From NCBI GenBank assembly GCA_963790475.1, contig CAWBOS010000006.1, positions 224,001 through 288,000 of the forward strand: a stretch of 64,000 nucleotides of DNA. The letters run 5' to 3'. The notes under the pieces are model-generated. The model was not told the origin of the DNA, ran no database searches, and saw only the letters and a list, made by a program, of their open reading frames with translations. A program made the translations under genes and the position numbers. The DNA comes from an uncultured delta proteobacterium. Its GTDB lineage: Bacteria; Desulfobacterota; RBG-13-43-22. Of this stretch, positions 1-30,315 are shown piece after piece (positions within the stretch are counted from its first letter, which is position 1; each line of letters begins with the position of its first letter).

Positions 1-40
1 GACAGAGAACGGAGGGAGAAAGATTGGGGGCGGGTTAGGG

Positions 41-126
41 GTTTATTGGGTCTGATGGGTCGTTTGGTTTTTTTTACTGAACAGACTAAATAGACCAAAA
101 AGATTATAGGACCAGATAGACCCAAT
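41..126. repeat. Degenerate ~9-nt tandem repeats: GT-rich arm followed by complementary AC-rich arm
   Basis: ttattgggtctgatgggtcgtttgg (43-67) then actgaacagactaaatagaccaaaaagattataggaccagatagacccaat (77-126). Confidence 0.7.
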
Positions 127-467
127 TAAAGGGATAGACTTAACTTAAGGGCTCGTTCGACTTCTTTCATTTTATTTTCATCGACCAACCCCAACCTTTT
201 TTCCAGTCGATCTTTAGAAACCGTTAGGATCTGGATGGTTTTTATAATAGAAGGTTTTATCAATCCACCTTGAGGTGGATCTAGTAATACATTCATAGGA
301 TATTTCTTTACTGTTGTTGAAACGGCGGCGACAATCGTAGTCGAAGCATGTTCATTGCCAATATTGTTTTGAATAACCAGCGCAGGTCTTTTCCCGGCCT
401 GCTCGCTGCCGCGGGCCGGGTTCCAATTGACAACCCATATTTCACCACGCTTGGGGAAGGTGGTCAT
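126..467 (-). CDS. MazF/PemK-family endoribonuclease toxin
   Basis: KRGEIWVVNWNPARGSEQAGKRPALVIQNNIGN signature; 113 aa; overlaps upstream antitoxin by 4 nt. Confidence 0.95.
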   Translation of the reverse strand: MTTFPKRGEIWVVNWNPARGSEQAGKRPALVIQNNIGNEHASTTIVAAVSTTVKKYPMNVLLDPPQGGLIKPSIIKTIQILTVSKDRLEKRLGLVDENKMKEVERALKLSLSL

Positions 468-697
468 TGGTGAATTTCCTTTTGGGCTTCCAAGGTCAAT
501 TCAGAAAATTTCCGGTCTTCATCCGCCATCTCCCGGTATCCCTCGGCCATTAAGGCTTCAGTCTTTTTTTCCAACCATAAGGAAAATGACTCTTGCGCCA
601 AACGGCTTCGGGCCAAATTAAAACGCTTGGCGGCCTGGTCAACAGCCTCACATAATCCTTCATCGATAGTAATGGTAATTTTTTTCTTGGTTTGCAT
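464..697 (-). CDS. Ribbon-helix-helix (CopG/EndoAI-like) antitoxin
   Basis: KKITITIDEGL beta strand, RSRL helix, LMAEGYREMA C-terminus typical of MazF partners. Confidence 0.9.
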   Translation of the reverse strand: MQTKKKITITIDEGLCEAVDQAAKRFNLARSRLAQESFSLWLEKKTEALMAEGYREMADEDRKFSELTLEAQKEIHQ

Positions 698-728
698 TAT
701 GCCCCCAATTAGTCTTACTTTTTAGCAG

Positions 729-757
729 ATATTATGTCATATTTTGAGTCATGTCAA
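729..757 (-). promoter_or_regulatory. sigma70-type promoter of RHH-MazF operon
   Basis: Minus strand TTGACA-N17-TAATAT with ATGAC direct repeats in the spacer. Confidence 0.6.
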
Positions 758-789
758 GAGAAAAATTTGGACACAAATGAATTGTGAGA

Positions 790-942
790 GCTTGGTTTGG
801 TCTGTCGGTTTGTTGAGTTTAATATGTCTATTTTGTCTATTTGGTTGAGGACTGAGGAAAAAGGATAAAGGAACGAGGAGCGAGGAGAAAAGATTGAGAT
901 GCGAGGAAAAAGGAACGAGGGGAAAGGAGAAAGGAGAAATGA
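790..942. repeat. 9-nt GT-rich tract followed by 7-nt purine-rich tract
   Basis: ttggtttggtctgtcggtttgttgagttt...gtctattttgtctatttgg then aggactg/aggaaaa/aggataa/aggaacg/aggagcg units. Confidence 0.75.
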
Positions 943-951
943 CCAGGGGGG

Positions 952-1242
952 CTATGGTTTTAGCTTGGACAGCAGAAGCCGGAATTGATCATAGAGGTCT
1001 CTCCGGTGGCCGACATAAAAAACCTGGACAACCCGATTATCATTGTCAACGGTGTATATGATCCTGAATCTCTTGGGTTTAAAGGACTTAAATTCGGCGA
1101 GTTCCTCCTGCAAATCGTCGCCGACATAGGGTTCCTCACGAAGTTGGTCTAAGGCGTCTCGTATGATCTTCTTATGATCAGGATGCAGGCGGGAGATGCA
1201 TTGCGCTGCTTCAGGAGTGAAACTAACCCGGTACTTCTTCAT
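952..1242 (-). CDS. RelE/ParE-family toxin
   Basis: YRVSFTPEAA N-terminus, FRIIYTV and YVGHRRDLY C-terminus. Confidence 0.92.
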   Translation of the reverse strand: MKKYRVSFTPEAAQCISRLHPDHKKIIRDALDQLREEPYVGDDLQEELAEFKSFKPKRFRIIYTVDNDNRVVQVFYVGHRRDLYDQFRLLLSKLKP

Positions 1243-1508
1243 TTCCCAAAAACCTTATCGTACTCGACCCATTTTCCCAGATTGGCCTCCTGGATAGATT
1301 TTCGAATGATTTTCATGGCCGACTCATCGGAAAGGATGTCGATGGTCTCGAGGAGACCTATAAATTTTCTCATACTAATCAAAACAGCCTCTGGAGCGCC
1401 GTTTTTAGTAATGGCGAAGGCATCGTCGGAATCCTCAAGTTTTCGGATTAAATTCAGAAGATTGCTTTTAGCTTTGGTGATTGGGATATAATCCTGTATG
1501 ATCTGCAT
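1239..1508 (-). CDS. Phd/YefM-family antitoxin
   Basis: IPITKAKSNL, ITKNGAPEAVLIS, ETIDILSD motifs; 4-nt overlap with toxin. Confidence 0.93.
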   Translation of the reverse strand: MQIIQDYIPITKAKSNLLNLIRKLEDSDDAFAITKNGAPEAVLISMRKFIGLLETIDILSDESAMKIIRKSIQEANLGKWVEYDKVFGK

Positions 1509-1524
1509 ATTTATTCTCCAATAG

Positions 1525-1563
1525 TTTTAATGGTCATTATACTGACTATTAAAATGCTGTCAA
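1525..1563 (-). promoter_or_regulatory. sigma70 promoter with overlapping palindromic operator (Phd-RelE autoregulation)
   Basis: Minus strand TTGACA-N16-TATAAT; palindrome ttttaatggtca-ttatac-tgactattaaaa (1525-1554) centred on the -10 box. Confidence 0.8.
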
Positions 1564-1622
1564 CCTATTTTGTGGGACGCAAAAATAGTTGATTTGTCGG
1601 AGGTAAATTTGGTAGTTTCTTG

Positions 1623-1810
1623 CCGCAGACCGGCACAGACAGGACCGGACAAAACCGTGTCTCTCACAGAGCGCACAGAGGCACAGAGAAAACTAATTTA
1701 TGGATTGCCGTTGAGGGGAAGGCAATCCAAAACCAGCGTCGCCTTTCCGCGAAATAATCTCTCTCTGAGAACTCTGAGGGCTTGAGTGACCGGAGGGAAC
1801 GGGCGAGAGG
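1623..1810 (+). repeat. Structured dispersed repeat, complete empty copy (leader + L arm + hairpin + R arm)
   Basis: L tctctcacagagcgcacagaggcacagag (1660), hairpin ggattgcc-gttgaggggaa-ggcaatcc, R ctctgagaactctgagggcttgagtgaccggagggaacgggcgagagg (1763-1810). Confidence 0.9.
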
Positions 1811-1819
1811 AAAATCTTT

Positions 1820-1914
1820 ATCTCTCACAGAGCTCACAGAGACACAGAGGCAAGAAAGATTTTCATTGCGTTTGAGAAGGCCGCAATTAAGACCTGTCTG
1901 TCGCCTGAAGGCGA
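1820..1914 (+). repeat. Structured dispersed repeat, L arm with hairpins
   Basis: atctctcacagagctcacagagacacagag, attgcg-tttgagaaggc-cgcaat, tcgcctgaaggcga. Confidence 0.85.
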
Positions 1915-2154
1915 AGATGCTTCTCTGGAGTGTATATATTAATTGAGGGATTAAGATTTAATAAGTTCCGGAATCAAACAAATCAGGTATTCTCCCGATG
2001 CTGCTTGGGGCAAGGCATAAGTTGTCTTCTTGGCATTTTATGCCGATGGCTATAAGAAGGTGAGGATGGTACGATTAGCAAGGTTTGTTATAACCGGCGT
2101 CCTTCGCTCACCCCAATATCCCCGGATGATTAAAAAATTTTTTTCGAGTTTACG

Positions 2155-2811
2155 ATGATGAAAAATCGATCCACTCAAAATTGGTACAGGCAGATCAAGG
2201 TGTTATTACCTACAATACTGATCGCCTATTCAATAACATTGGCGGCTATTGTCGGAATCTCCATTTATGCAATTTCCACAGGGAGGCGAATCTGGTATTT
2301 CACGGTTGATCCGTTTCTTATTGGCAACCTGCCATTTTATGCCGGCTTTCTTTCTAATTTGGGACTGCTTTTGTGGAGTGCCAGCGCAACGGTTTGTTTT
2401 TTTAGCGCAATGATCCTGCGTGATGAAGAATTAATAAACCGATATAGGTATTTTTTTGTTATGTCTGGTCTCTTTACTTCCTTGATTATGTTTGACGGTC
2501 TCTTTCAGATGCATCGCATTTTCTATCCGAATCACCTTCATCTCTCAACTTTTATGATCTATTGCGTTTATAGTATTCTTGGACTCTGGTATCTCTTTAT
2601 TTTTAGAAAACAAATTATGGAGACTGAATATTTAATGCTTGCCTTGGCTTTAAGCTTCCTTGGGTTGGCCGTAATTATTGATACCGTGTCTATGGTACCG
2701 AGAGGTCGTACGGCGCTTTCGGATTTATTTAAATTTTTTGGAATTGTGAGCTGGTTCATCTATTTTATCCGCACTTGCCGGAAGGTTCTGAGGAATGAGG
2801 AAAAAGGATAA
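2155..2811 (+). CDS. Hypothetical multi-pass membrane protein
   Basis: 218 aa ORF with about 6-7 hydrophobic segments; AT-rich; no motif recognised. Confidence 0.75.
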   Translation: MMKNRSTQNWYRQIKVLLPTILIAYSITLAAIVGISIYAISTGRRIWYFTVDPFLIGNLPFYAGFLSNLGLLLWSASATVCFFSAMILRDEELINRYRYFFVMSGLFTSLIMFDGLFQMHRIFYPNHLHLSTFMIYCVYSILGLWYLFIFRKQIMETEYLMLALALSFLGLAVIIDTVSMVPRGRTALSDLFKFFGIVSWFIYFIRTCRKVLRNEEKG

Positions 2812-2844
2812 AGGATCGTGGAGATTTACCTAAAACGAAAGTTC

Positions 2845-2895
2845 CTCTCTCAGAACTGTGAGGGCAAGATTGACCGGGGAGTGAGCGGCGAGAGG
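2845..2895 (+). repeat. Structured dispersed repeat, R arm
   Basis: ctctctcagaactgtgagggcaagattgaccggggagtgagcggcgagagg, homologous to 1763-1810. Confidence 0.85.
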
Positions 2896-2905
2896 AAAAG
2901 TCTTT

Positions 2906-3138
2906 ATCTCTCACAGAGCTCACAGGGGGCACGGAGATGATATTTATTGATTGCCGTTGAGGGAGGGGGCGGCAATCAATATCCATCCGTCGCCTGGCGA
3001 CGACCCGTGGTTACACGCCCAAAGGGCCAGATGGTAGGAGGAAGACAAGTCGTCTTCCCTCCTGTCAGGTATTTGTCTGTGGCAAAAGAAGCTCTGAGAA
3101 CTGAGGGCTCAATTGACCGAAGGGAACGGGCGAGAGAA
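2906..3138 (+). repeat. Structured dispersed repeat, complete copy containing the extra hairpin module
   Basis: L arm at 2906, attgattgccg...cggcaatcaat hairpin, gtcgcctggcgac, ggaagac-aagtc-gtcttcc module (3017-3063), R arm 3092-3136. Confidence 0.9.
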
Positions 3139-3256
3139 AACAGGAGACGTCGGAAAATTGTGTCTAAGCACAAAGAATGGCGCCAGTTTTTCGCCTTGGC
3201 TTAAGACCAAGAATTATATCCCATTGAAATACTGATTTTTTTTATAGGCCTCCTCA

Positions 3257-3272
3257 TGGCATAGGTTTTGCT
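3257..3272 (+). promoter_or_regulatory. sigma54 (-24/-12) promoter
   Basis: TGGCATAGGTTTTGCT: GG-N10-GC spacing, about 60 nt upstream of the protease ATG. Confidence 0.7.
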
Positions 3273-3329
3273 AAATCAGGAAGAAAGCAATTATCTCACT
3301 TTATCAATACTGGAGAAAGGGAGGTTTTT

Positions 3330-4178
3330 ATGATGGTGAAGAAGACTAGGGCTTCGAAGAACAGCTTTTCAGGAAAAAGGGGTTATGGGTGGGTGCCGGA
3401 TATTCCGGATCAGAGGGATTATCTTTTAAGCGCAGTGCTTAAGGTGCCGGCCAGGCTGCCTGGCAAGGTAGATTTGCGGCCGCTCTGTTCCAAGATTGAA
3501 GATCAGGGCCAACTGGGGAGCTGCACGGCCAATGCCCTGGCCGGGGCCATCGAGTTCCTGGAACGAAAGGACAAGGTTCCTTTTCAGGATTTCAGCAGGC
3601 TCTTTATTTACTATAACGAACGGGCCTTGGAACACACCATAAACTCCGATTCGGGGGCCATGATCCGGGATGGGATCAAGACTATGGCCAAGCAAGGGGT
3701 CTGCTCCGAGAAGAGCTGGCCCTATGAGGTATCCAAGTTTAAATCTAAACCGGGACCAGCCTGCTATAAAGAAGCCTTGGAACATCAGATCACCTCCTAT
3801 CGTCGTATTCTCACCCTTGATCAGATGCGGACCTGTCTGGCCGAAGGGTTCCCTTTTATCTTTGGCTTTACCGTGTACGAGAGCTTTGAAACCCAGGAAG
3901 TCGCCCGGACCGGTGTTGTGAATATGCCCGACCATGGCGAGCAGGTGCTCGGAGGGCATGCCGTTCTCGCCGTGGGGTACGATCATTCCAAAGAGAGATT
4001 TATTGTCCGAAATTCCTGGGGAAGCGGTTGGGGCCTGAAGGGCTATTTCACCATGCCCTATAAATACCTCAGCAACCGTAACCTTTCCGACGACTTTTGG
4101 ACCATCCGCAGGGGAGAATTGATGGTTCCCAGAAAAAAGGAAAGGATTGAGGTACGAGGAAAAAGAGTTGAGGGGTGA
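3330..4178 (+). CDS. C1A papain-family cysteine protease
   Basis: DQGQLGSCTANA (Gln/Cys), GGHAVLAVGY (His), VRNSWGSGWG (Asn); RBS GGAGG. Confidence 0.95.
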   Translation: MMVKKTRASKNSFSGKRGYGWVPDIPDQRDYLLSAVLKVPARLPGKVDLRPLCSKIEDQGQLGSCTANALAGAIEFLERKDKVPFQDFSRLFIYYNERALEHTINSDSGAMIRDGIKTMAKQGVCSEKSWPYEVSKFKSKPGPACYKEALEHQITSYRRILTLDQMRTCLAEGFPFIFGFTVYESFETQEVARTGVVNMPDHGEQVLGGHAVLAVGYDHSKERFIVRNSWGSGWGLKGYFTMPYKYLSNRNLSDDFWTIRRGELMVPRKKERIEVRGKRVEG

Positions 4179-4585
4179 TCTCTCACAGAGCAGAGGGAGG
4201 CACAGAGGGGAAAAGCTCATAGCTCAAAGCTGATAGCTGATAGCGAGAAAGAACTATCAAGAGATAGCGTCATTATTTTTTCATTGCGGTCGAGAAGGAC
4301 CGCAGTTGTCTATGACAAAAGAAAAGAAGGATTTATAGCCACGGACGCACACGGACAAAGTCTGGACGAAAGATAATTTGCCTGGCCCCTACAAGGACGT
4401 GGCCAAGCAAACCCAGCCGTCGCCTGGCGGCGAACCTGGAGTTAAGTACCTGATCCATTAGGCCTTAGGTAAGCCGAAGGCTGGATGGGTTATGAAAATC
4501 GGCCTGACACCGAATTTTATAAAAAGTGGTTCCTTCTCTCTGGGAAATCTGAGGGCTCGAGTGACGGGAGGGAATGGGCGAGCGG
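4178..4585 (+). repeat. Structured dispersed repeat, expanded copy with internal heptamer tract and hairpins
   Basis: L arm at 4178; (t/a)agctga/ca heptamers 4213-4244; tgcggtc-gagaag-gaccgca; gccgaaggc...ttatgaaaatcgg...ccgaattttataa shared with 30050-30102; R arm 4538-4585. Confidence 0.8.
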
Positions 4586-4595
4586 AAAAGATCCG

Positions 4596-4623
4596 ATCTC
4601 TCACAGGGCACGCAGAGGCACAA
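4596..4623 (+). repeat. Structured dispersed repeat, L arm (short)
   Basis: atctctcacagggcacgcagaggcaca. Confidence 0.8.
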
Positions 4624-4649
4624 CTAGGCATTGCGCAATGTTTGAGTTA

Positions 4650-4678
4650 TTGACATTCTCTGAAGATGCGCTTAATAT
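4650..4678 (+). promoter_or_regulatory. sigma70 promoter of RHH-PIN operon
   Basis: TTGACA-N17-TAATAT. Confidence 0.65.
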
Positions 4679-4709
4679 AGGCTCATAATTAAACGCTAGA
4701 GGTGCAACA

Positions 4710-4940
4710 ATGAGAATAACCGCACATATTCCGGATAATATTGCAAAAGATGTTAAGAGGTTTGCTGACAATGAAAAGATGTCGGTATCGGCGGTAATAG
4801 CCGAAGCGCTTCAATATTATGTTTACGAAAAAAAAAAGATGGAAACCGGGAAAAAAGTTTTGGCCATGATCGGCAAGGTGCACGTTTCTGAAGATGCACA
4901 TAAAGAACTTAATAAAATGAGAGCAGAGACTGAAAGATGA
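4710..4940 (+). CDS. RHH/CopG-like antitoxin
   Basis: MRITAHIPDNI...SVSAVIAEALQYY RHH pattern; ATGA overlap with PIN gene. Confidence 0.85.
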   Translation: MRITAHIPDNIAKDVKRFADNEKMSVSAVIAEALQYYVYEKKKMETGKKVLAMIGKVHVSEDAHKELNKMRAETER

Positions 4941-5329
4941 TAGGTTTGGATTCGGGTTTTTTTGTTGAGCTTCTTAAGGGCAATCAACAAACCGAAAGAA
5001 TCTGGAATGACATTTTGGATGGTCAAGGTTCTGTAGTATCGTGCATTTCTTTATTTGAACTTAAGAGGCTCGGCCTGAAAGGTTTGATTGATATCAGCAC
5101 GATCGACACTATTAATGAAGCGATTATGAATATATGCAATATTGCCTGGTTAGATAATGTTACTGTTGTCAATACGGCTGCTAATTTTTCCCACGGATTG
5201 GGAATCCACATGGCTGATGCCTTGATCCTTTCAGGATTTATTAAATATGGAGTTACGAAAATATACACAACGGATCAACACATTTCTTTGTATAAGAAAA
5301 AAGGCGTGAGGGTTATTATGCTAATTTAA
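4937..5329 (+). CDS. PIN-domain (VapC-like) toxin
   Basis: GLDSG, SLFEL, ADALI, IYTTD acidic PIN residues. Confidence 0.9.
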   Translation: MIGLDSGFFVELLKGNQQTERIWNDILDGQGSVVSCISLFELKRLGLKGLIDISTIDTINEAIMNICNIAWLDNVTVVNTAANFSHGLGIHMADALILSGFIKYGVTKIYTTDQHISLYKKKGVRVIMLI

Positions 5330-5367
5330 TCCATGACTTTTTTTACTTTGTTCTTATAGGGCGCCTT

Positions 5368-5555
5368 TCAATTGACCGGATGGAACGGGCGTGAGAAAAA
5401 AGGTGAAAGGAACTAGGAGCGGGTTATGGGTGGGGATTTGTTGAGTTTGTTGAGTCAATTGGGTTCATTGAGTTATTGGGTTTAATTGGTAGGCTTGGGT
5501 ATCCTCTTTTAATACAAAAATACCGTTTGTCGTTTATCGTTCGGTGTTCGGCGAA
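5368..5555 (+). repeat. Partial R arm followed by 7-nt and 9-nt tandem tracts
   Basis: tcaattgaccggatggaacgggcgtgag; tttgttgag/tttgttgag/tcaattggg/ttcattgag/ttattggg; cgtttgt/cgtttat/cgttcgg/tgttcgg. Confidence 0.8.
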
Positions 5556-5701
5556 CCCCAATTTTCATACTTCGGGGCGGTTGGCAAAGGTCTGAGGGTT
5601 TTATATAAAAAAACTCCGCACAAACTGTACGGGTTTTTTATCGGTAATAAATTGTTTGGGATAAGAATTTTATTAGTGTTTTTTCCTTGTCCGGGTAGCG
5701 G

Positions 5702-5910
5702 CTAACTCTTAATTCTCAAATTTTCTAAAGTTGGAACCGTTTTAAAGAGATCGCTTTCCGTTGCCTTTCGGTCGAAGGTGTAAGTTACCACAGCCTTTTC
5801 ACGATGATTGGAAAGACCGATAAGATAGTCGGCAAAGTCAGCCTTTCAGTCTGCCGCTGGTCATTGCGGACAATATAGCGAATAAGAACATTGGTATCCA
5901 ATCCAATCAA
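5702..5910 (-). pseudogene. PIN/VapC toxin pseudogene with internal deletion and frameshift
   Basis: Minus strand reads MIGLDTNVLIRYIVRNDQRQTE, then in another frame KADFADYLIGLSN...TYTFDRKA; the middle of the PIN domain is absent. Confidence 0.85.
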
Positions 5911-6140
5911 GACGATGCCCCTTTAGCTATTGCCTTATCCATATCAGCCAAGGATAGGGCTTTTTGGGGTTTAGGGACCATCCCCTTCAAACTGGATATC
6001 GTTTCCACCACAGGAATGATCTCCAACCTTTCATTGTCAATGACAATAAATTCCAGTTTACTGCCCGGGATAATTTTCAGTCGTCTCCTGGCTTCAGCCG
6101 GTAGAGTCACTTGTCCTTTGCTGGTTACCGTGGCAATCAT
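5907..6140 (-). CDS. AbrB/MazE/SpoVT-family antitoxin
   Basis: ATVTSKGQVTLPAEARRRLKI.PG motif. Confidence 0.93.
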   Translation of the reverse strand: MIATVTSKGQVTLPAEARRRLKIIPGSKLEFIVIDNERLEIIPVVETISSLKGMVPKPQKALSLADMDKAIAKGASS

Positions 6141-6215
6141 TTCTTACCTCTTCTATATGTTCCTTACTTTTTAACCTTACTTTATCCAAATAAAATATTT
6201 TGTCAAGAGAATCCA

Positions 6216-6293
6216 TGTCCGGAGGGGATGGGCGAGAGAAGAAAATAGTGCCCTGAGGGACTGACGATAGGAGGAAGACAGGTCGTCTTCCTC
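6216..6293 (+). repeat. Partial R arm plus ggaagac hairpin module
   Basis: tccggaggggatgggcgagag; agtgccctgagggactgacgataggaggaagacaggtcgtcttcctc. Confidence 0.8.
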
Positions 6294-6377
6294 GTTTCCA
6301 GCCGTAGTCGTTGGTACAAGGAAAATCCTCATTGCTAAAATTCCGAATGTAGTGTATTGTAGTACAAGAGGTGGGAA

Positions 6378-6596
6378 ATGAGAAACGTATTATCTGTGAG
6401 CCTTCCGGGAAATTTGGTGAAAGACCTTAATAGTTTTGCCAAGTCAACAGGAAGGAATAAAAGCGACATTTTAAGAGATTCGTTGGGCAATTACCTTTGG
6501 GAAATTAAATTCAAGGAGACCAAGAAACGCCTTTCCGCCAAAGCAAAGAAAGCCGGAATCATAACCGAAGATGATGTTTTTAAAACGGTATCATGA
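6378..6596 (+). CDS. CopG/RHH antitoxin
   Basis: VLSVSLP...GRNKSDILRDSL; GIITEDDVF C-terminus; ATGA overlap. Confidence 0.9.
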   Translation: MRNVLSVSLPGNLVKDLNSFAKSTGRNKSDILRDSLGNYLWEIKFKETKKRLSAKAKKAGIITEDDVFKTVS

Positions 6597-7000
6597 AAGC
6601 CGCTTTCGATACTAATGTCCTAGTTGCGGCATTCCTTACCGACGGTTTATGCTCCAAGCCCCTTTTAAGAGCACGCCGCAAGGAATTCTCCTTAATTCTG
6701 TGCCCTTATATTTTGCAGGAGTTTCAAAAATTTCTTCAAGCAAAAATTAAGGCCTCAAGCCGGGAAATAGAAATGGCGGTTAAGCTCCTTGAAGAAGGGG
6801 CTTTTGAGATAAAGCATCCTTCGATGATTATTGAAAGGACATGCCGAGATATCGATGATGATAATATTCTCAGCTGTGCCTTGGCTTCAGAATCGGAGTA
6901 TTTGGTGACCGGAGATGATGATTTATTAACACTTCATAAGTATGGAAAAACAAAAATCATCAAACCTCGACAGTTTGAAGATCTTTTTGTCGACAATTAA
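6593..7000 (+). CDS. PIN-domain toxin (TIGR00305/PIN_3-like)
   Basis: FDTNVLVAA, CRDIDDDNILSCA, LVTGDDDLL. Confidence 0.93.
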   Translation: MKAAFDTNVLVAAFLTDGLCSKPLLRARRKEFSLILCPYILQEFQKFLQAKIKASSREIEMAVKLLEEGAFEIKHPSMIIERTCRDIDDDNILSCALASESEYLVTGDDDLLTLHKYGKTKIIKPRQFEDLFVDN

Positions 7001-7054
7001 AAGAATTGCCCAACCACGTTCTTCGGTTATCGGTGGCAAAAAAAGCCTTTCTAT

Positions 7055-7254
7055 CCACGGACCCACACAGACAGAAACTGGGACAATAGCTTATCTCTCG
7101 CGGAGCACGCGGAGGCACAGAGATTTTTTTCATTGCGGTTGAGGGACCGCAATGAAAAACACCCCGTAGTCTGATTTCCCTTTCTCAGAAAATCAGACTA
7201 TAAGTAACACACTCTGCAAACTCTGAAGGCTTGAGCGAAGCGGGCGGGAGAAAA
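7055..7254 (+). repeat. Structured dispersed repeat, complete empty copy
   Basis: Leader ccacggacccacacagac, L arm at 7093, ttttcattgcggt-tgaggg-accgcaatgaaaa, tagtctgattt...aaatcagacta, R arm 7212-7254. Confidence 0.88.
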
Positions 7255-7264
7255 GGGGTTTTGA

Positions 7265-7485
7265 AGTCAAAATGAAAAATGGAAAGTGCAGTTTGGTCTG
7301 TTTGGTCTATTGAGTCTATTGAGTTTGTTGAGTTCATTGCGTTGAGGAGAGAGGAAGAAGGAGAAAGGACAGGAAACACGGGGAAGAATGGATTGATGGA
7401 ATAATGGAAAAGGCAACAAGGATCAACCCAAACCACTCAAGTAACTCAATAACCCAACTAACTCAAGCAACCCAATAAATTCAAC
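7265..7485. repeat. Mosaic of 7-, 9- and 8-nt tracts with complementary 9-nt arms
   Basis: gtttggtct/gtttggtct/attgagtct/attgagttt/gttgagttc (7291-7345) versus caacccaaa/ccactcaag/taactcaa/taacccaac/taactcaag/caacccaat (7424-7485). Confidence 0.8.
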
Positions 7486-7505
7486 GGTGCCGGGTTCAGA
7501 TGAAT

Positions 7506-7832
7506 TTACCCTCTTAACAATAAAAAACCCCCCACATAATGCAAGCCTTCCCAATGACCGTCCACATAATAATCCTTCACACTCTCCGTATAACCATTCC
7601 TTGCCTCATGTAGATCTCCCTCGACTGGTGTTACAATCGAAGTATTTGGTTCCACACCTACAGGTGGTAGGGAGAAATTTAACCACGCAACCACACTGAG
7701 ATCATTAGTTGCTTCCAGTCCTGCCTTTGTCGGTGGCAAAAGAGAAGTATTAAAAGACTTTTTAGACACAGAACCAAGGAAGGAGAAACGAAGAAACAAG
7801 GTATGGAACGATAGCCTAAAAAATATTGACAC
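7506..7832 (-). CDS. Hypothetical ORF or gene fragment
   Basis: 108 aa ORF filling the gap between repeats and the next TA promoter; start uncertain; no motif recognised. Confidence 0.3.
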   Translation of the reverse strand: MSIFFRLSFHTLFLRFSFLGSVSKKSFNTSLLPPTKAGLEATNDLSVVAWLNFSLPPVGVEPNTSIVTPVEGDLHEARNGYTESVKDYYVDGHWEGLHYVGGFLLLRG

Positions 7833-7908
7833 TTTATGGTATAAAGTGTACCCTTTGCTCAGAATATAAAAGAATATTTCCCATTGCTGTAAAATTGAGG
7901 TGATCTAA

Positions 7909-8145
7909 ATGATAGAGGTAAATGCCAAAAAGGCTCGTGGGCAGTTAAGCTCCTTGCTTAAACAAGTCGAGGAAGGAGAAGAAGTGATCATTTCCCGTAA
8001 TGGAAAAAGGATTGCCCGGATGGTTTCTTTAATAGAATCCCCCAAGCGACTTCCAAGCTTGAATGATTTCAGGGCAAAGGTCAGAATTAATGGTGAGCCG
8101 CTGAGTGGAATCGTGGTGCAATCCCGGAAGGAAGAACGCTATTGA
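7909..8145 (+). CDS. Phd/YefM-family antitoxin
   Basis: VNAKKARGQLSSLL...GEEVIISRNGKRIARMV; upstream TTGACA (7826) with palindrome acactttat-ggt-ataaagtgt. Confidence 0.92.
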   Translation: MIEVNAKKARGQLSSLLKQVEEGEEVIISRNGKRIARMVSLIESPKRLPSLNDFRAKVRINGEPLSGIVVQSRKEERY

Positions 8146-8212
8146 TGATGGTATTGAAAAAAGTTCACAATCGTTACGAGCCTATTGAGGCATCATCCTA
8201 GGGAGGTAATCG

Positions 8213-8668
8213 TTGATGGTTTATGTAGATACCAGTCTTCTTGCCGCCTATTATTCCCCTGAACCTTTGAGCGGGAAAGCAGAGGAATTTCTAATTGGTC
8301 AGGAGGGGTTGGCCATCAGCAGTCTGACCGAAATTGAGCTTTTTTCAGCCCTTTCAAGAAAGGTGCGGGAGGAAGGACTTCATCAAATGGATGCTAAAAA
8401 GATTGCTTCTCGGTTTCTGTCCCATGTGGATGGGAATTTTTTCAAATATCTTACAGTAGAAACCAGACATTATCGACTGGCACGTGATTGGTTGGGGTTG
8501 TTCAACACCAGTCTGCGAAGCCTGGATGCCTTGCATTTAGCCGTAGCCTCATCACAAGGATTAGCTGTCGCTACCTCCGATCTTAAATTTTCCCAATCAG
8601 CTCGCGCAATGGGTCTGGAAGTTCTGTTGATTTCGTTTGAGGAGCCGAATGCCGAGAAAAGCATTTAA
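8213..8668 (+). CDS. VapC/PIN toxin
   Basis: YVDTSLL, LTEIEL, LRSLDALHLAVA, ATSD. Confidence 0.94.
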   Translation: MMVYVDTSLLAAYYSPEPLSGKAEEFLIGQEGLAISSLTEIELFSALSRKVREEGLHQMDAKKIASRFLSHVDGNFFKYLTVETRHYRLARDWLGLFNTSLRSLDALHLAVASSQGLAVATSDLKFSQSARAMGLEVLLISFEEPNAEKSI

Positions 8669-8710
8669 AAGTATCTGTGACCAGGGCTTCAGTCTAATAC
8701 TCTTCTATAT

Positions 8711-9052
8711 CTATATGGATAGATGAACCTTCATGGCCTTGTCAATCGCTTCTATATCTTCGAGTTCCAGTTTCCCTATGAATTTTATCAACCTCCTTCG
8801 ATCAAGGGTCCGAATCTGATCGGCCTTAACCTTGGAGTCTTTGGGCAGGTTGCCTTTTCCCTGAGGGATGAAAACCTCAAAAGGGTAAATCTTCTCCAAG
8901 TTTTTAGAGGTAACCGTAAGAACGGTCACTGTGCTTGAATACAGGTTATTGACGTCATTGGAAACCACCACCACCGGCCTGGTTTTTGCTATTTCGTTCC
9001 CGATTGCCGGATCTAGACCGGCCAGAAAGACATCGCCTCGCTTAATATTCAT
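8711..9052 (-). CDS. MazF/PemK-family toxin
   Basis: KRGDVFLAGLDPAIGNEIAKTRPVVVVSND, DQIRTLD. Confidence 0.95.
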   Translation of the reverse strand: MNIKRGDVFLAGLDPAIGNEIAKTRPVVVVSNDVNNLYSSTVTVLTVTSKNLEKIYPFEVFIPQGKGNLPKDSKVKADQIRTLDRRRLIKFIGKLELEDIEAIDKAMKVHLSI

Positions 9053-9296
9053 CCCAGCCCTCCAAGTCGATAATGAAAAAATCTTGCGAAATTTCCCGAC
9101 CTTCTCCGTTGCGGACTTGGTAGCCTTCCTTCAGTATTTGTTCTTGTCGTTCCCTCCGCATTTTTTTCAATTTTTCTCTCAAGGTCATTGCAATAAATTG
9201 ACTTTTTTTGCGTGGTTCAACAAATTGATTTAATTCCTCCACTAGTTCATCCGGCAAAGTAATATTCAGCCTGGTGGTCTCCATAATGCACCTCAT
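9042..9296 (-). CDS. RHH antitoxin (start probably at METTRLN)
   Basis: RLNITLPDEL...KSQFI...LKEGY; upstream palindrome atgtatt-aat-aatacat. Confidence 0.88.
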   Translation of the reverse strand: MRCIMETTRLNITLPDELVEELNQFVEPRKKSQFIAMTLREKLKKMRRERQEQILKEGYQVRNGEGREISQDFFIIDLEGWDEY

Positions 9297-9421
9297 TTGA
9301 TGTATTAATAATACATATTAATTTACACATTCAATTAAATTTTATCAAGATAAATTTGGAACACCTTAATAGGAAAAAAAAACGAAGATTGGTGACTGAG
9401 CAACCTATGAAAAGAGTTTTA

Positions 9422-9490
9422 TAGTCAAAATGAAAAATGCAAAAGATAAAGTGCAAAATGAAAAAAGGGTAAAGGGGAGGGTGGTGGGTT
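9422..9490 (+). repeat. Heptamer tandem tract
   Basis: agtcaaa/atgaaaa/atgcaaa/agataaa/gtgcaaa/atgaaaa; same family as 7265 and 16341. Confidence 0.7.
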
Positions 9491-9518
9491 CATAGTCAGA
9501 GAGCTGGGTTCAGAGACC

Positions 9519-11769: not shown

Positions 11770-12162
11770 GTGGAAAAGAAAAAAATTGAAAAATTTGAAG
11801 ATTTGATTGCCTGGCAGAAAGCCCGCGAATTGACAAAAATTATTTACCAAATTACGAACTACGGGAAGTTTTCGACGGATTTTGGGGTAAGGGATCAAAT
11901 CCGAAGATCAGCCGTTTCCAATATTGCTGAAGGATTCGAGCGGGGAGGTCGGGCGGAATTCCACCAATATTTAGTTATTGCAAAAGGCTCTTGCGCGGAA
12001 TTAAGATCCCAATTATATGTTGCCTTGGATGCCGGGTATCTTGACATAGTCACCTATCAAAAAGTAAATGCCTTGGCTGAAGAAACAAGCCGTTTGATAG
12101 GTGGACTTAGATCAGCAGTCTATCGCCAGAAAACTGTTGATCGTGTAAAGAGAACAAATTAA
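11770..12162 (+). CDS. Four-helix-bundle protein (23S rRNA IVP/TIGR02436-like)
   Basis: [46 protein letters not shown]. Confidence 0.93.
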
Positions 12163-29839: not shown

Positions 29840-29917
29840 ATAGACTAAGGTGTATAAAAAATTAATAGGGTCTAAGAAATTCCTTTGTAACATTTTATCT
29901 ATTCTCAATACGTTTTG

Positions 29918-30219
29918 CCACCGACCCACAAAGACTGGACCAAAGGCCTATCTCTCACAGAGCGCACAGAGGCGCAGAGAATTGATATTTTCTCATTGCC
30001 GGTGAGGGGCCAGCAATGAAAAACCAGTCATGCGCTATCGCGCACCCTGGCCGAAGGCCTGAGGGGTTATGAATAATCGGCCTCTCGCCGATTTTTCATA
30101 AAATATGGTCGTTTTTCTCTGAGAACTCTGAGGGCTCAAGAGACCGTAAGGGAACGGGCGAGAGGAAAAATTAGTGCCCGGAGGGCCTGACGGTAGGAGA
30201 AGACAAGTCGTCTTTCTCC
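29918..30219 (+). repeat. Solo copy of the structured dispersed repeat with all modules
   Basis: Leader, L arm at 29950, cattgc...gcaatg hairpin, ttatgaa...ttcataa hairpin, R arm 30117-30165, gaagac module 30173-30219. Confidence 0.9.
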
Positions 30220-30315
30220 AGTCTTGCAGTTTTCTGTGGTAAAAAGGAAATTGCTGTGCTTTTTTCAAAAAACTAAATTGATAAATTCGTTTAAGTATTA
30301 AGCGAGGTAGTATTC

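Follow-up and report, generated by a model that had tools for sequence, protein, structure and literature searches.

The first 10 kb of the DNA analysed here hold an island of toxin-antitoxin (TA) genes that is punctuated by a family of short repeats, and the locus raises the question what these repeats are and which enzyme, if any, moves them. By the window we mean the whole 64-kb stretch (contig 6, 224001-288000), part of a 6.34-Mb assembly of 20 contigs with 49% G+C that is designated G000. Coordinates are window positions unless a contig or locus label is given, and the comparison set comprised 21 genomes of the order, which equals the family in the collection used. The repeats occur as a left arm (L) and a right arm (R) of roughly inverse sequence, and the original prediction took each pair for a recombination or insertion site of an enzyme acting in trans, analogous to integron attC sites or to REPIN elements. 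We conclude that the window repeats are probably miniature, gene-less derivatives of cassettes which encode a GxxExxY (PDDEXK_3) nuclease between arms of this kind. The anatomy of the units, their dispersal, the association of the gene with the arms and the existence of occupied and unoccupied sites are matters of observation.

Anatomy, dispersal and insertion of the units

Searching the window with a degenerate L pattern gave nine matches, all on the + strand (seven sites, some of them counted twice in overlapping registers), against an expectation of 0.03 and with nine reached in 0 of 100 shuffles. The matches lie at about 1660, 1820, 4179, 4597, 7093 and 29951, and the copy at 2906 was recovered by a profile search. 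Profiles made from the copies in the window recovered every predicted L and R arm, and the arms are far beyond chance; of the two partial R arms, that at 5368-5398 reached a profile E-value of 0.007, and that at 6217-6240 is weak for the profile (E 5.2) and readable by eye. The L arm opens with TCTCTC, behind which three CACAGAG-type heptamers recur with a period of 9 nt. The R arm consists of an inverted array (two CTCTG blocks plus GCTC), an insert of 7-22 nt and GAGAG. Both belong to a set of modules whose order is constant in the genome, X-L-A-B-C-R-Y1-Y2, in which X is a further array of short repeats, Y2 closes with the inverse of the sequence that opens X, and A, B and C are small hairpins.

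The proposed modular family with inverted arms was borne out. The genome-wide search gave 150 module matches in 64 clusters in G000 (A 49, R 26, L 25, X 20, C 12, Y2 10, Y1 6 and B 2). Most L and R copies are paired in intergenic units of 160-410 nt, and most clusters are solitary; some copies adjoin ordinary genes, for example proC and a transporter. The densest cluster is that of the TA island (6 L and 7 R arms in 6 kb), and a second accessory island, on contig 11 (164800-178600), has three co-oriented R arms among small genes (TumE, CopG, DUF5615/DUF433, a HicB-like gene and three GxxExxY genes). The anticipated enrichment beside accessory genes is real in these two islands, yet it does not extend to TA genes at large. 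All copies had been said to share one orientation; this is true of the window (L 7/7, R 8/8) but not of the genome (L 15 + and 10 -, R 13 + and 13 -), so the common orientation is only local. Within the array there are R-L junctions with a spacer of 8-12 nt and a Y2-X junction at 7018-7090, and the units are therefore arranged head to tail. Of the 21 genomes compared, 17 have the core; counts range from 0 to 38 matches per genome, the core is absent from four, and three complete congeners have none. Copies at unrelated loci are 92-93% identical over 308-374 nt and end sharply, whether they come from one genome or from different genera. In a first sample from other families of the phylum a 326-nt query gave a weak match in one of 20 genomes.

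L and R had been described as imperfect reverse complements able to fold into a long stem, and in a scheme of 24 pairs standard pairing was indeed found in 89.6% of the cells (24 units, 10 genomes). The compensatory changes that a conserved stem should show were not detected: double changes affect three pairs only, as many as or fewer than in 282 of 500 shuffles, covariation scores 0.057 versus 0.048 for shuffled alignments, and in a mutual-information scan the two variable heptamer positions do not track their partners across L and R. Compensatory change between L and R is no greater than in shuffles, and one of the conditions that the original prediction had set for its own refutation thus holds for L against R. 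The arms are maintained as sequence, not as structure, which fits protein-binding repeats. Hairpin A covaries, with double changes in 8 of 14 pairs and 93.7% of the cells paired over 25 copies (0 of 500 shuffles), flat slid controls and almost no G-U intermediates. As to folding, both strands of the 346-nt element at 29905-30250 are more stable than their shuffles (z -4.7 and -5.9), but the short unit at 1655-1812 is not (z -1.6, equalled by 16 of 200 shuffles). Copy orientation shows a weak bias with respect to flanking open reading frames (ORFs): among 41 placed copies, 13 have the same and 8 the opposite direction in co-directional gaps, 7 lie in convergent and 2 in divergent gaps, and for 11 one side is unknown. 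That both strands fold equally well and that the orientation bias is weak speaks in favour of DNA-level elements rather than RNA genes.

Comparison between relatives revealed filled and empty sites at five loci. The solitary element at 29905-30250 is present in G000 and its site is empty in the congener G011; in G004 a different interior lies between the same L and R. Three further pairs concern copies in G017, the first of which sits within an operon junction that is empty and spans 0-17 nt in 3 of 3 congeners, while the site of the second is empty in G014 and that of the third in G020. A bare L/R unit on contig 15 of G000 is missing from two relatives: the corresponding gap measures 29 nt in G004 and, by coordinates, 13 nt in G001. 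At the site of this unit G012 has a 150-nt miniature with inverted CAGGAT-type arrays (L217, ~2710-2860), and one gap was therefore hit by two array families. Complete copies bear one of two outer shells, each with its own inverted ends, around the same L...R core. Shell 1 has 13-nt inverted ends and is built on the X and Y arrays. Shell 2 has inverted ends of ~19 nt, 10 of 11 of which are flanked by TA, and a single TA stands at one clean empty site; the TA could equally belong to the inverted end, and no duplication was resolved for shell 1 or for the bare L/R units. Terminal inverted repeats, small size and insertion polymorphism between relatives are all features of MITEs, miniature transposable elements with inverted repeats. 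Where R or Y1 has been deleted from a variant, short direct repeats mark the junction. At one G011 locus (L035, 1052-2016) the L and R arms are ~960 nt apart, with no convincing ORF between them and only a 272-residue low-complexity frame.

The GxxExxY nuclease between the arms

The lead to an enzyme came from the cargo. In G017 the interval from L-A to R holds a decayed GxxExxY gene, and an intact one is found in G011 on contig 323, which is homologous to the array of the window (ParE-Phd 81%, R-L-A 85%). Base-by-base reading revealed a full-length form, L-A-B-gene-C'-R, in G001 and G011, with gene-less units abutting both sides. The proteins of these two cassettes are GxxExxY proteins that match TIGR04256 with 141-159 bits versus a cut-off of 35. 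Including more distant relatives, the gene stands exactly between arms at five loci in five genomes (G001, G011, G017 in decayed form, G071 and G196). In 11 of 11 aligned proteins the G, G, E and Y of the name motif are invariant, as is a D ... E-x-K pattern which we take to be the PD-(D/E)XK catalytic motif. A sequence search of solved structures gave no relative of the nuclease (best E 0.62).

The link was also compared with control families. A module lies within 1.5 kb of 15 out of 30 GxxExxY (PF13366) loci of the family, compared with 0 out of 30 Y1 loci and 3 out of 30 MazF loci, and those three all belong to the present island or to its orthologue in G013. At 16 of 28 GxxExxY loci the gene is spanned by repeats of 30 nt or longer, at 12 by direct and at 4 more by inverted repeats only; the corresponding numbers are 2 of 26 for MazF and 0 of 27 for Y1 genes. 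The direct repeats are 31-147 nt long and 82-97% identical. When 22 of the proteins were grouped into seven clusters, arrays were found at 15 of 30 loci and each cluster with arrays had its own heptamer: CACAGAG in cluster 1 (3 of 4 members), CGCAGAG or CGCAAAG in cluster 2, CACGGAT in cluster 4 (3 of 3, tandem copies), CAGGATT in cluster 5 and GCAGAAT in cluster 7. G000 itself has five intact GxxExxY genes, with arms of the CGCAGAG, CACGGAT and CAGGATT types. Those in the contig 11 island are ~2 kb apart, each with flanking CACGGAT arrays.

The arrays extend beyond the family. Of 401 genomes sampled from the phylum, 96 contain three CAGAG cores at a 9-nt period, with a maximum of 279 per genome and 14 in G000, while the reversed control pattern is found 0 or 1 times almost everywhere in the same sample. 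Many array matches form + / - pairs 50-150 nt apart. Two loci from other families of the phylum hold the gene between arrays. In G196 a 141-residue GxxExxY gene lies directly between inverted arrays; in G071 a 123-residue GxxExxY gene is 3 nt from each array, right behind the stop codon of its neighbour, and this locus was the first to be returned by the array pattern alone.

Taken as a mechanism, L and R would form the inverted termini of a short, selfish cassette of DNA, the complete form of which would carry a single gene between the arms, for a GxxExxY (PDDEXK_3) protein of ~130 residues from the PD-(D/E)XK nuclease superfamily. The window copies would have lost the nuclease gene and kept only the hairpins A, B and C as interior, and two units would have taken up other cargo, namely a membrane-like ORF of 218 residues (2155-2811) and an RHH-PIN pair (4710-5329). 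Units would insert into intergenic DNA, nest in each other and in other miniature elements with inverted-repeat ends, and accumulate head to tail in tolerant places such as the TA island, where the piled-up copies would be eroded by deletion between short direct repeats. The nuclease would recognise the heptamer arrays and move units in trans, possibly by cutting at their ends or by provoking repair that copies the unit. The units of the window are best read as non-autonomous or cargo-swapped derivatives of the cassette.

A number of observations weigh against this reading. There is no GxxExxY gene in the window or anywhere on its contig, and no cognate gene of the CACAGAG type was found in G000, so that the window copies may be stranded or may be served by the CGCAGAG-type gene of contig 10. 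G014 and G019 have cores and no GxxExxY gene. In four array-rich distant genomes exact arrays are present at the gene in only 2 of 10 GxxExxY loci, and G056 has 88 arrays and no PF13366 match at an E-value of 1e-15. The agreement between cluster and heptamer comes from 22 proteins; these include tandem copies, and related proteins do not count as independent cases. At 12 of 28 loci the gene lies between direct, not inverted, repeats, which fit transposition no better than recombination of tandem units. Composites with outer shells make up four of the five filled/empty pairs, and one shell, with its own inverted ends and TA flanks, suggests a DDE transposase. Copy-number correlation was rejected as evidence for the nuclease because the MazF control was equally high (rho 0.58, compared with 0.57 for GxxExxY). 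In the accessible part of a survey of PD-(D/E)XK proteins PF13366 is listed with the function 'Unknown', and no activity is on record there for any GxxExxY protein (PMC3424549).

We put forward, with not quite even confidence, the more general idea that GxxExxY/PDDEXK_3 proteins are the mobilising enzymes of an undescribed class of minimal mobile elements with gene-less miniatures in many bacteria. Such an element could perhaps measure ~430-640 nt, with one small nuclease gene between inverted, lineage-specific heptamer arrays and room for other cargo. No published description of the cassette or of the repeats was found in the literature, supplements and subscription journals being outside the search. 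If the idea is correct, a second system would exist beside REPIN/RAYT in which a single host-resident gene maintains miniature palindromic repeats, and it would rest on another enzyme fold. It would also give the widespread TIGR04256/PF13366 family its first function, explain the short-period repeats and hairpins that fill the intergenic DNA of the lineage, and imply that the arms can enclose other genes, TA pairs included. Three heptamers at a 9-nt period provide a handle for searches. For the window alone the meaning is more modest: its repeats are probably decayed mobile DNA heaped in an accessory island.

Alternative explanations and related systems

Ordinary MITEs moved by a DDE transposase, for example of the IS630/Tc1-mariner type, would account for the two kinds of outer inverted ends (13-19 nt), for the TA flanks and the clean empty site of the second kind and for the sharp ends of the insertions; the GxxExxY gene would then be a frequent passenger in tolerant spots. 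However, no element with shell ends and a transposase inside, and hence no IS630-type parent, was found in G000, and the check for insertion sequences that had been proposed gave none matching the repeats. DDE_3 was found at 0 places in G000 and G016, and at three loci in G011, G014 and G017 that all lack the shell ends. Moreover, the same L...R core occurs in two unrelated shells and also without a shell, including in one filled/empty pair, and at five loci of five genomes the gene is placed exactly between the arms. We consider this explanation unlikely. The direct repeats around the gene (12 of 28 loci) and the short direct repeats at deletion junctions are equally compatible with passive tandem units that are shuffled by homologous recombination of the host, like IS26 translocatable units, with no dedicated enzyme, and so is the common orientation of the array units regardless of gene direction. 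Passive shuffling leaves unexplained the solitary insertions in 13-29-nt gaps between conserved genes, the phylum-wide conservation of heptamer arrays and the position of the gene between inverted arrays, and it appears distinctly improbable.

An integron-like attC array devoid of its integrase, or a structured non-coding RNA or regulatory element, was suggested by the co-oriented sites between small accessory genes, several of which have promoter-like sequences of their own, and by the folding of the long element. The integron integrase model TIGR02249 gave a best score of 105 bits in the genome versus a cut-off of 265; its 25 matches are all ordinary tyrosine recombinases and none lies on the contig of the window. 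By eye, no core ends of the attC consensus were seen in the window. Genes lie inside units (2155-2811, 4710-5329) as well as between them (3330-4178), and solitary units stand on both strands beside housekeeping genes, so the attC-like fixed site of the original prediction had to be given up. Rfam, which it had proposed as a check, returned nothing at gathering thresholds in the whole 64-kb window; at E-values up to 1-5 no relevant match appeared, only chance-level ones (Pab19, E 0.096, inside a peptidase gene, and Atu_C4, E 3.5). Together with the equal folding of both strands, the lack of a clear strand bias (13 versus 8) and the absence of the core from 4 of 21 genomes, this makes an attC array or an RNA very improbable. 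The remaining candidate is an enzyme of the REPIN/RAYT type. The proposed search for an HUH or RAYT gene, also upstream of position 1, did reveal an intact Y1_Tnp (IS200-like) gene of 321 residues (contig 6, 222996-223961) that ends 39 nt before the window and lies 1.65 kb from the first unit. Its product scores 46 bits versus a cut-off of 23, has a weak DnaA_C-like tail and bears what we read as an HUH-like motif. The units are also inverted doublets, as in the definition of REPINs available in PMC3337134. Nevertheless, a module was found within 1.5 kb at 0 of 30 loci of the Y1 family (20 genomes), and the flanks of the neighbouring gene are unique in the genome (1-2 matches); both the family and this gene were rejected as movers of the repeats. 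In 20 of 21 genomes this Y1 family is represented by 1-20 matches each, many with stops, whereas RAYTs are typically single-copy according to the accessible part of PMC5581495, and other long Y1 genes of G000 are flanked by a different repeat. A role of the neighbouring Y1 gene is thus extremely improbable. That other repeat, of ~145 nt, flanks two long Y1 genes (contig 12, 180779-180930; contig 11, ~139790-139940) and has 77-82 BLAST matches in the genome at 82-92% identity; it may, with its Y1 genes, represent a true REPIN-like family and its RAYT.

The likeness to REPINs therefore holds as a way of working, with non-autonomous units and a plausible enzyme in trans, and not in the strict sense. 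As REPIN/RAYT systems are described in the accessible parts of PMC3337134 and PMC3116915, they share with the units described here short intergenic elements formed by two inverted copies of a conserved motif, gene-less copies that far outnumber the gene, a candidate enzyme acting in trans, and persistence in a lineage as singlets and doublets. Two inverted, hairpin-capable copies are present in our units, but an associated Y1 gene is not. The gene found here is of the PD-(D/E)XK-type GxxExxY family and lies inside the element, unlike the HUH Y1 transposase, and the arms are three-heptamer arrays instead of the single REP hairpin of a REPIN.

Like MITEs and their parent insertion sequences, the units are small and intergenic, have inverted ends, occupy sites that are empty in relatives, nest in one another and have a longer counterpart that shares their ends and carries a gene. 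The sole gene of this longer form is not a known transposase, and for units delimited by L and R no clean target duplication was established. The streptococcal BOX elements, as far as the accessible part of PMC3049150 describes them, similarly have conserved end modules capable of pairing that enclose inner modules varying in number and kind, and in S. suis two pairs of end modules surround the same inner module, which resembles the two shells reported here. There is no sequence relation, however, BOX elements belong to another phylum and are described there without an associated gene, and in the present family the core is conserved inside while the shells vary. Integron attC sites are likewise imperfect inverted repeats between small accessory genes, TA pairs included, and are co-oriented in an array. 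They differ from the present sites, which are conserved in sequence and not in structure, have neither an integrase nor a consistent cassette boundary, and also occur singly along the chromosome on both strands.

Units and neighbouring genes in the window

All features of the units described in this section lie on the + strand, and arms and modules were identified by profile unless noted otherwise. The outer left shell of unit 1 is formed by an X module (1616-1657; profile match and reading), an array of short repeats of the CACAGAC/CGGAC type. It is followed by L1 (1658-1690; pattern and profile), with its three CACAGAG-type heptamers at a 9-nt period behind TCTCTC, by the co-varying palindrome of hairpin A (1697-1733; covariation analysis) and by R1 (1759-1812; E 8.5e-17), an inverted heptamer array with insert and GAGAG end. 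L2 (1817-1852) comes 8-10 nt after R1 at the first R-L junction, and the membrane-like cargo ORF of 218 residues (2155-2811; ORF and family search) lies between L2-A-B and R2 (2843-2897). At the second R-L junction R2 is followed by L3 (2903-2939) and the hairpin A of unit 3 (2943-2983; hairpin A alignment). Here a Y module, consisting of Y1 hairpins and the Y2 end that is the inverse of the X start (3016-3087), precedes R3 (3091-3139). L4 (4176-4208; profile and reading) extends from the stop codon of the C1 peptidase gene (3330-4178), and with R4 (4534-4587) it bounds a unit of 412 nt that contains an internal X-like array (~4332-4365) and a hairpin C (4487-4530).

The third R-L junction leads to L5 (4593-4627). 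Between this arm and a partial R arm, of which only the 3' half is left (5368-5398; E 0.0067), lies the pair of RHH antitoxin and PIN toxin (4710-5329; family search). A second partial R arm, reduced to its last ~25 nt, is followed by a Y1 module (6217-6291; reading, weak in the profile). At 7018-7088 a Y2-type end abuts an X module, so that two shells stand in tandem (reading and profile). The last unit of the array has L6 (7090-7125; pattern and profile), in which two heptamers carry an A-to-G variant, a hairpin A (7125-7160; hairpin A alignment) and a short variant of R (R6, 7209-7253). The complete solitary element X-L-A-B-C-R-Y1-Y2 (29905-30283; profile, folding and comparison with the congener), with its R arm at 30113-30167, lies far from the array between two genes of housekeeping type. 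One DNA run, holding 43% of the words of window 1-9500 in short, low-depth contigs, showed a doubtful joint of 1690 to 1758 and loose ends at repeat borders and was not used.

The TA island comprises MazEF, ParE-Phd, two RHH-PIN pairs, MazE with a decayed PIN, two Phd-PIN pairs and a second MazEF, in addition to the papain-like peptidase and the ORF of 218 residues. The end of the peptidase gene coincides exactly with the start of L4, and an insertion sequence that encodes a DDE_Tnp_1_4 transposase interrupts its G013 orthologue (L081, 4572-5090 and 5250-6662). The 218-residue protein has several hydrophobic stretches and matched no Pfam or NCBIfam family; a 72%-identical stretch is present in the syntenic island of G013. 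A remnant of a PIN (VapC-like) toxin is found on the minus strand at 5700-5906, behind the gene of a MazE/AbrB-type antitoxin (5907-6140); no ORF of 50 residues is left in it, and to the eye its start resembles the N-terminus of a PIN protein. A four-helix-bundle protein (11770-12162; TIGR02436, 93.5 bits) is encoded where the island ends; it is a member of a small family often found as scattered solitary genes.

Two other kinds of short tandem repeat accompany the modules. Tandem 9-nt repeats of the TTGAGTNNN kind lie at 46-125, 5437-5483 and 7297-7343, with the inverse at 7437-7480. Arrays of the TTGAGTNNN kind with an inverted partner form another palindromic module, and in G004 repeats of this kind occupy the L-R interior of the orthologous site. 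The second kind, 7-nt tandem repeats rich in purines (GAGGAAA/GGATAAA), stands beside modules at 845-942, 2788-2836, 4140-4175 and 7342-7390.

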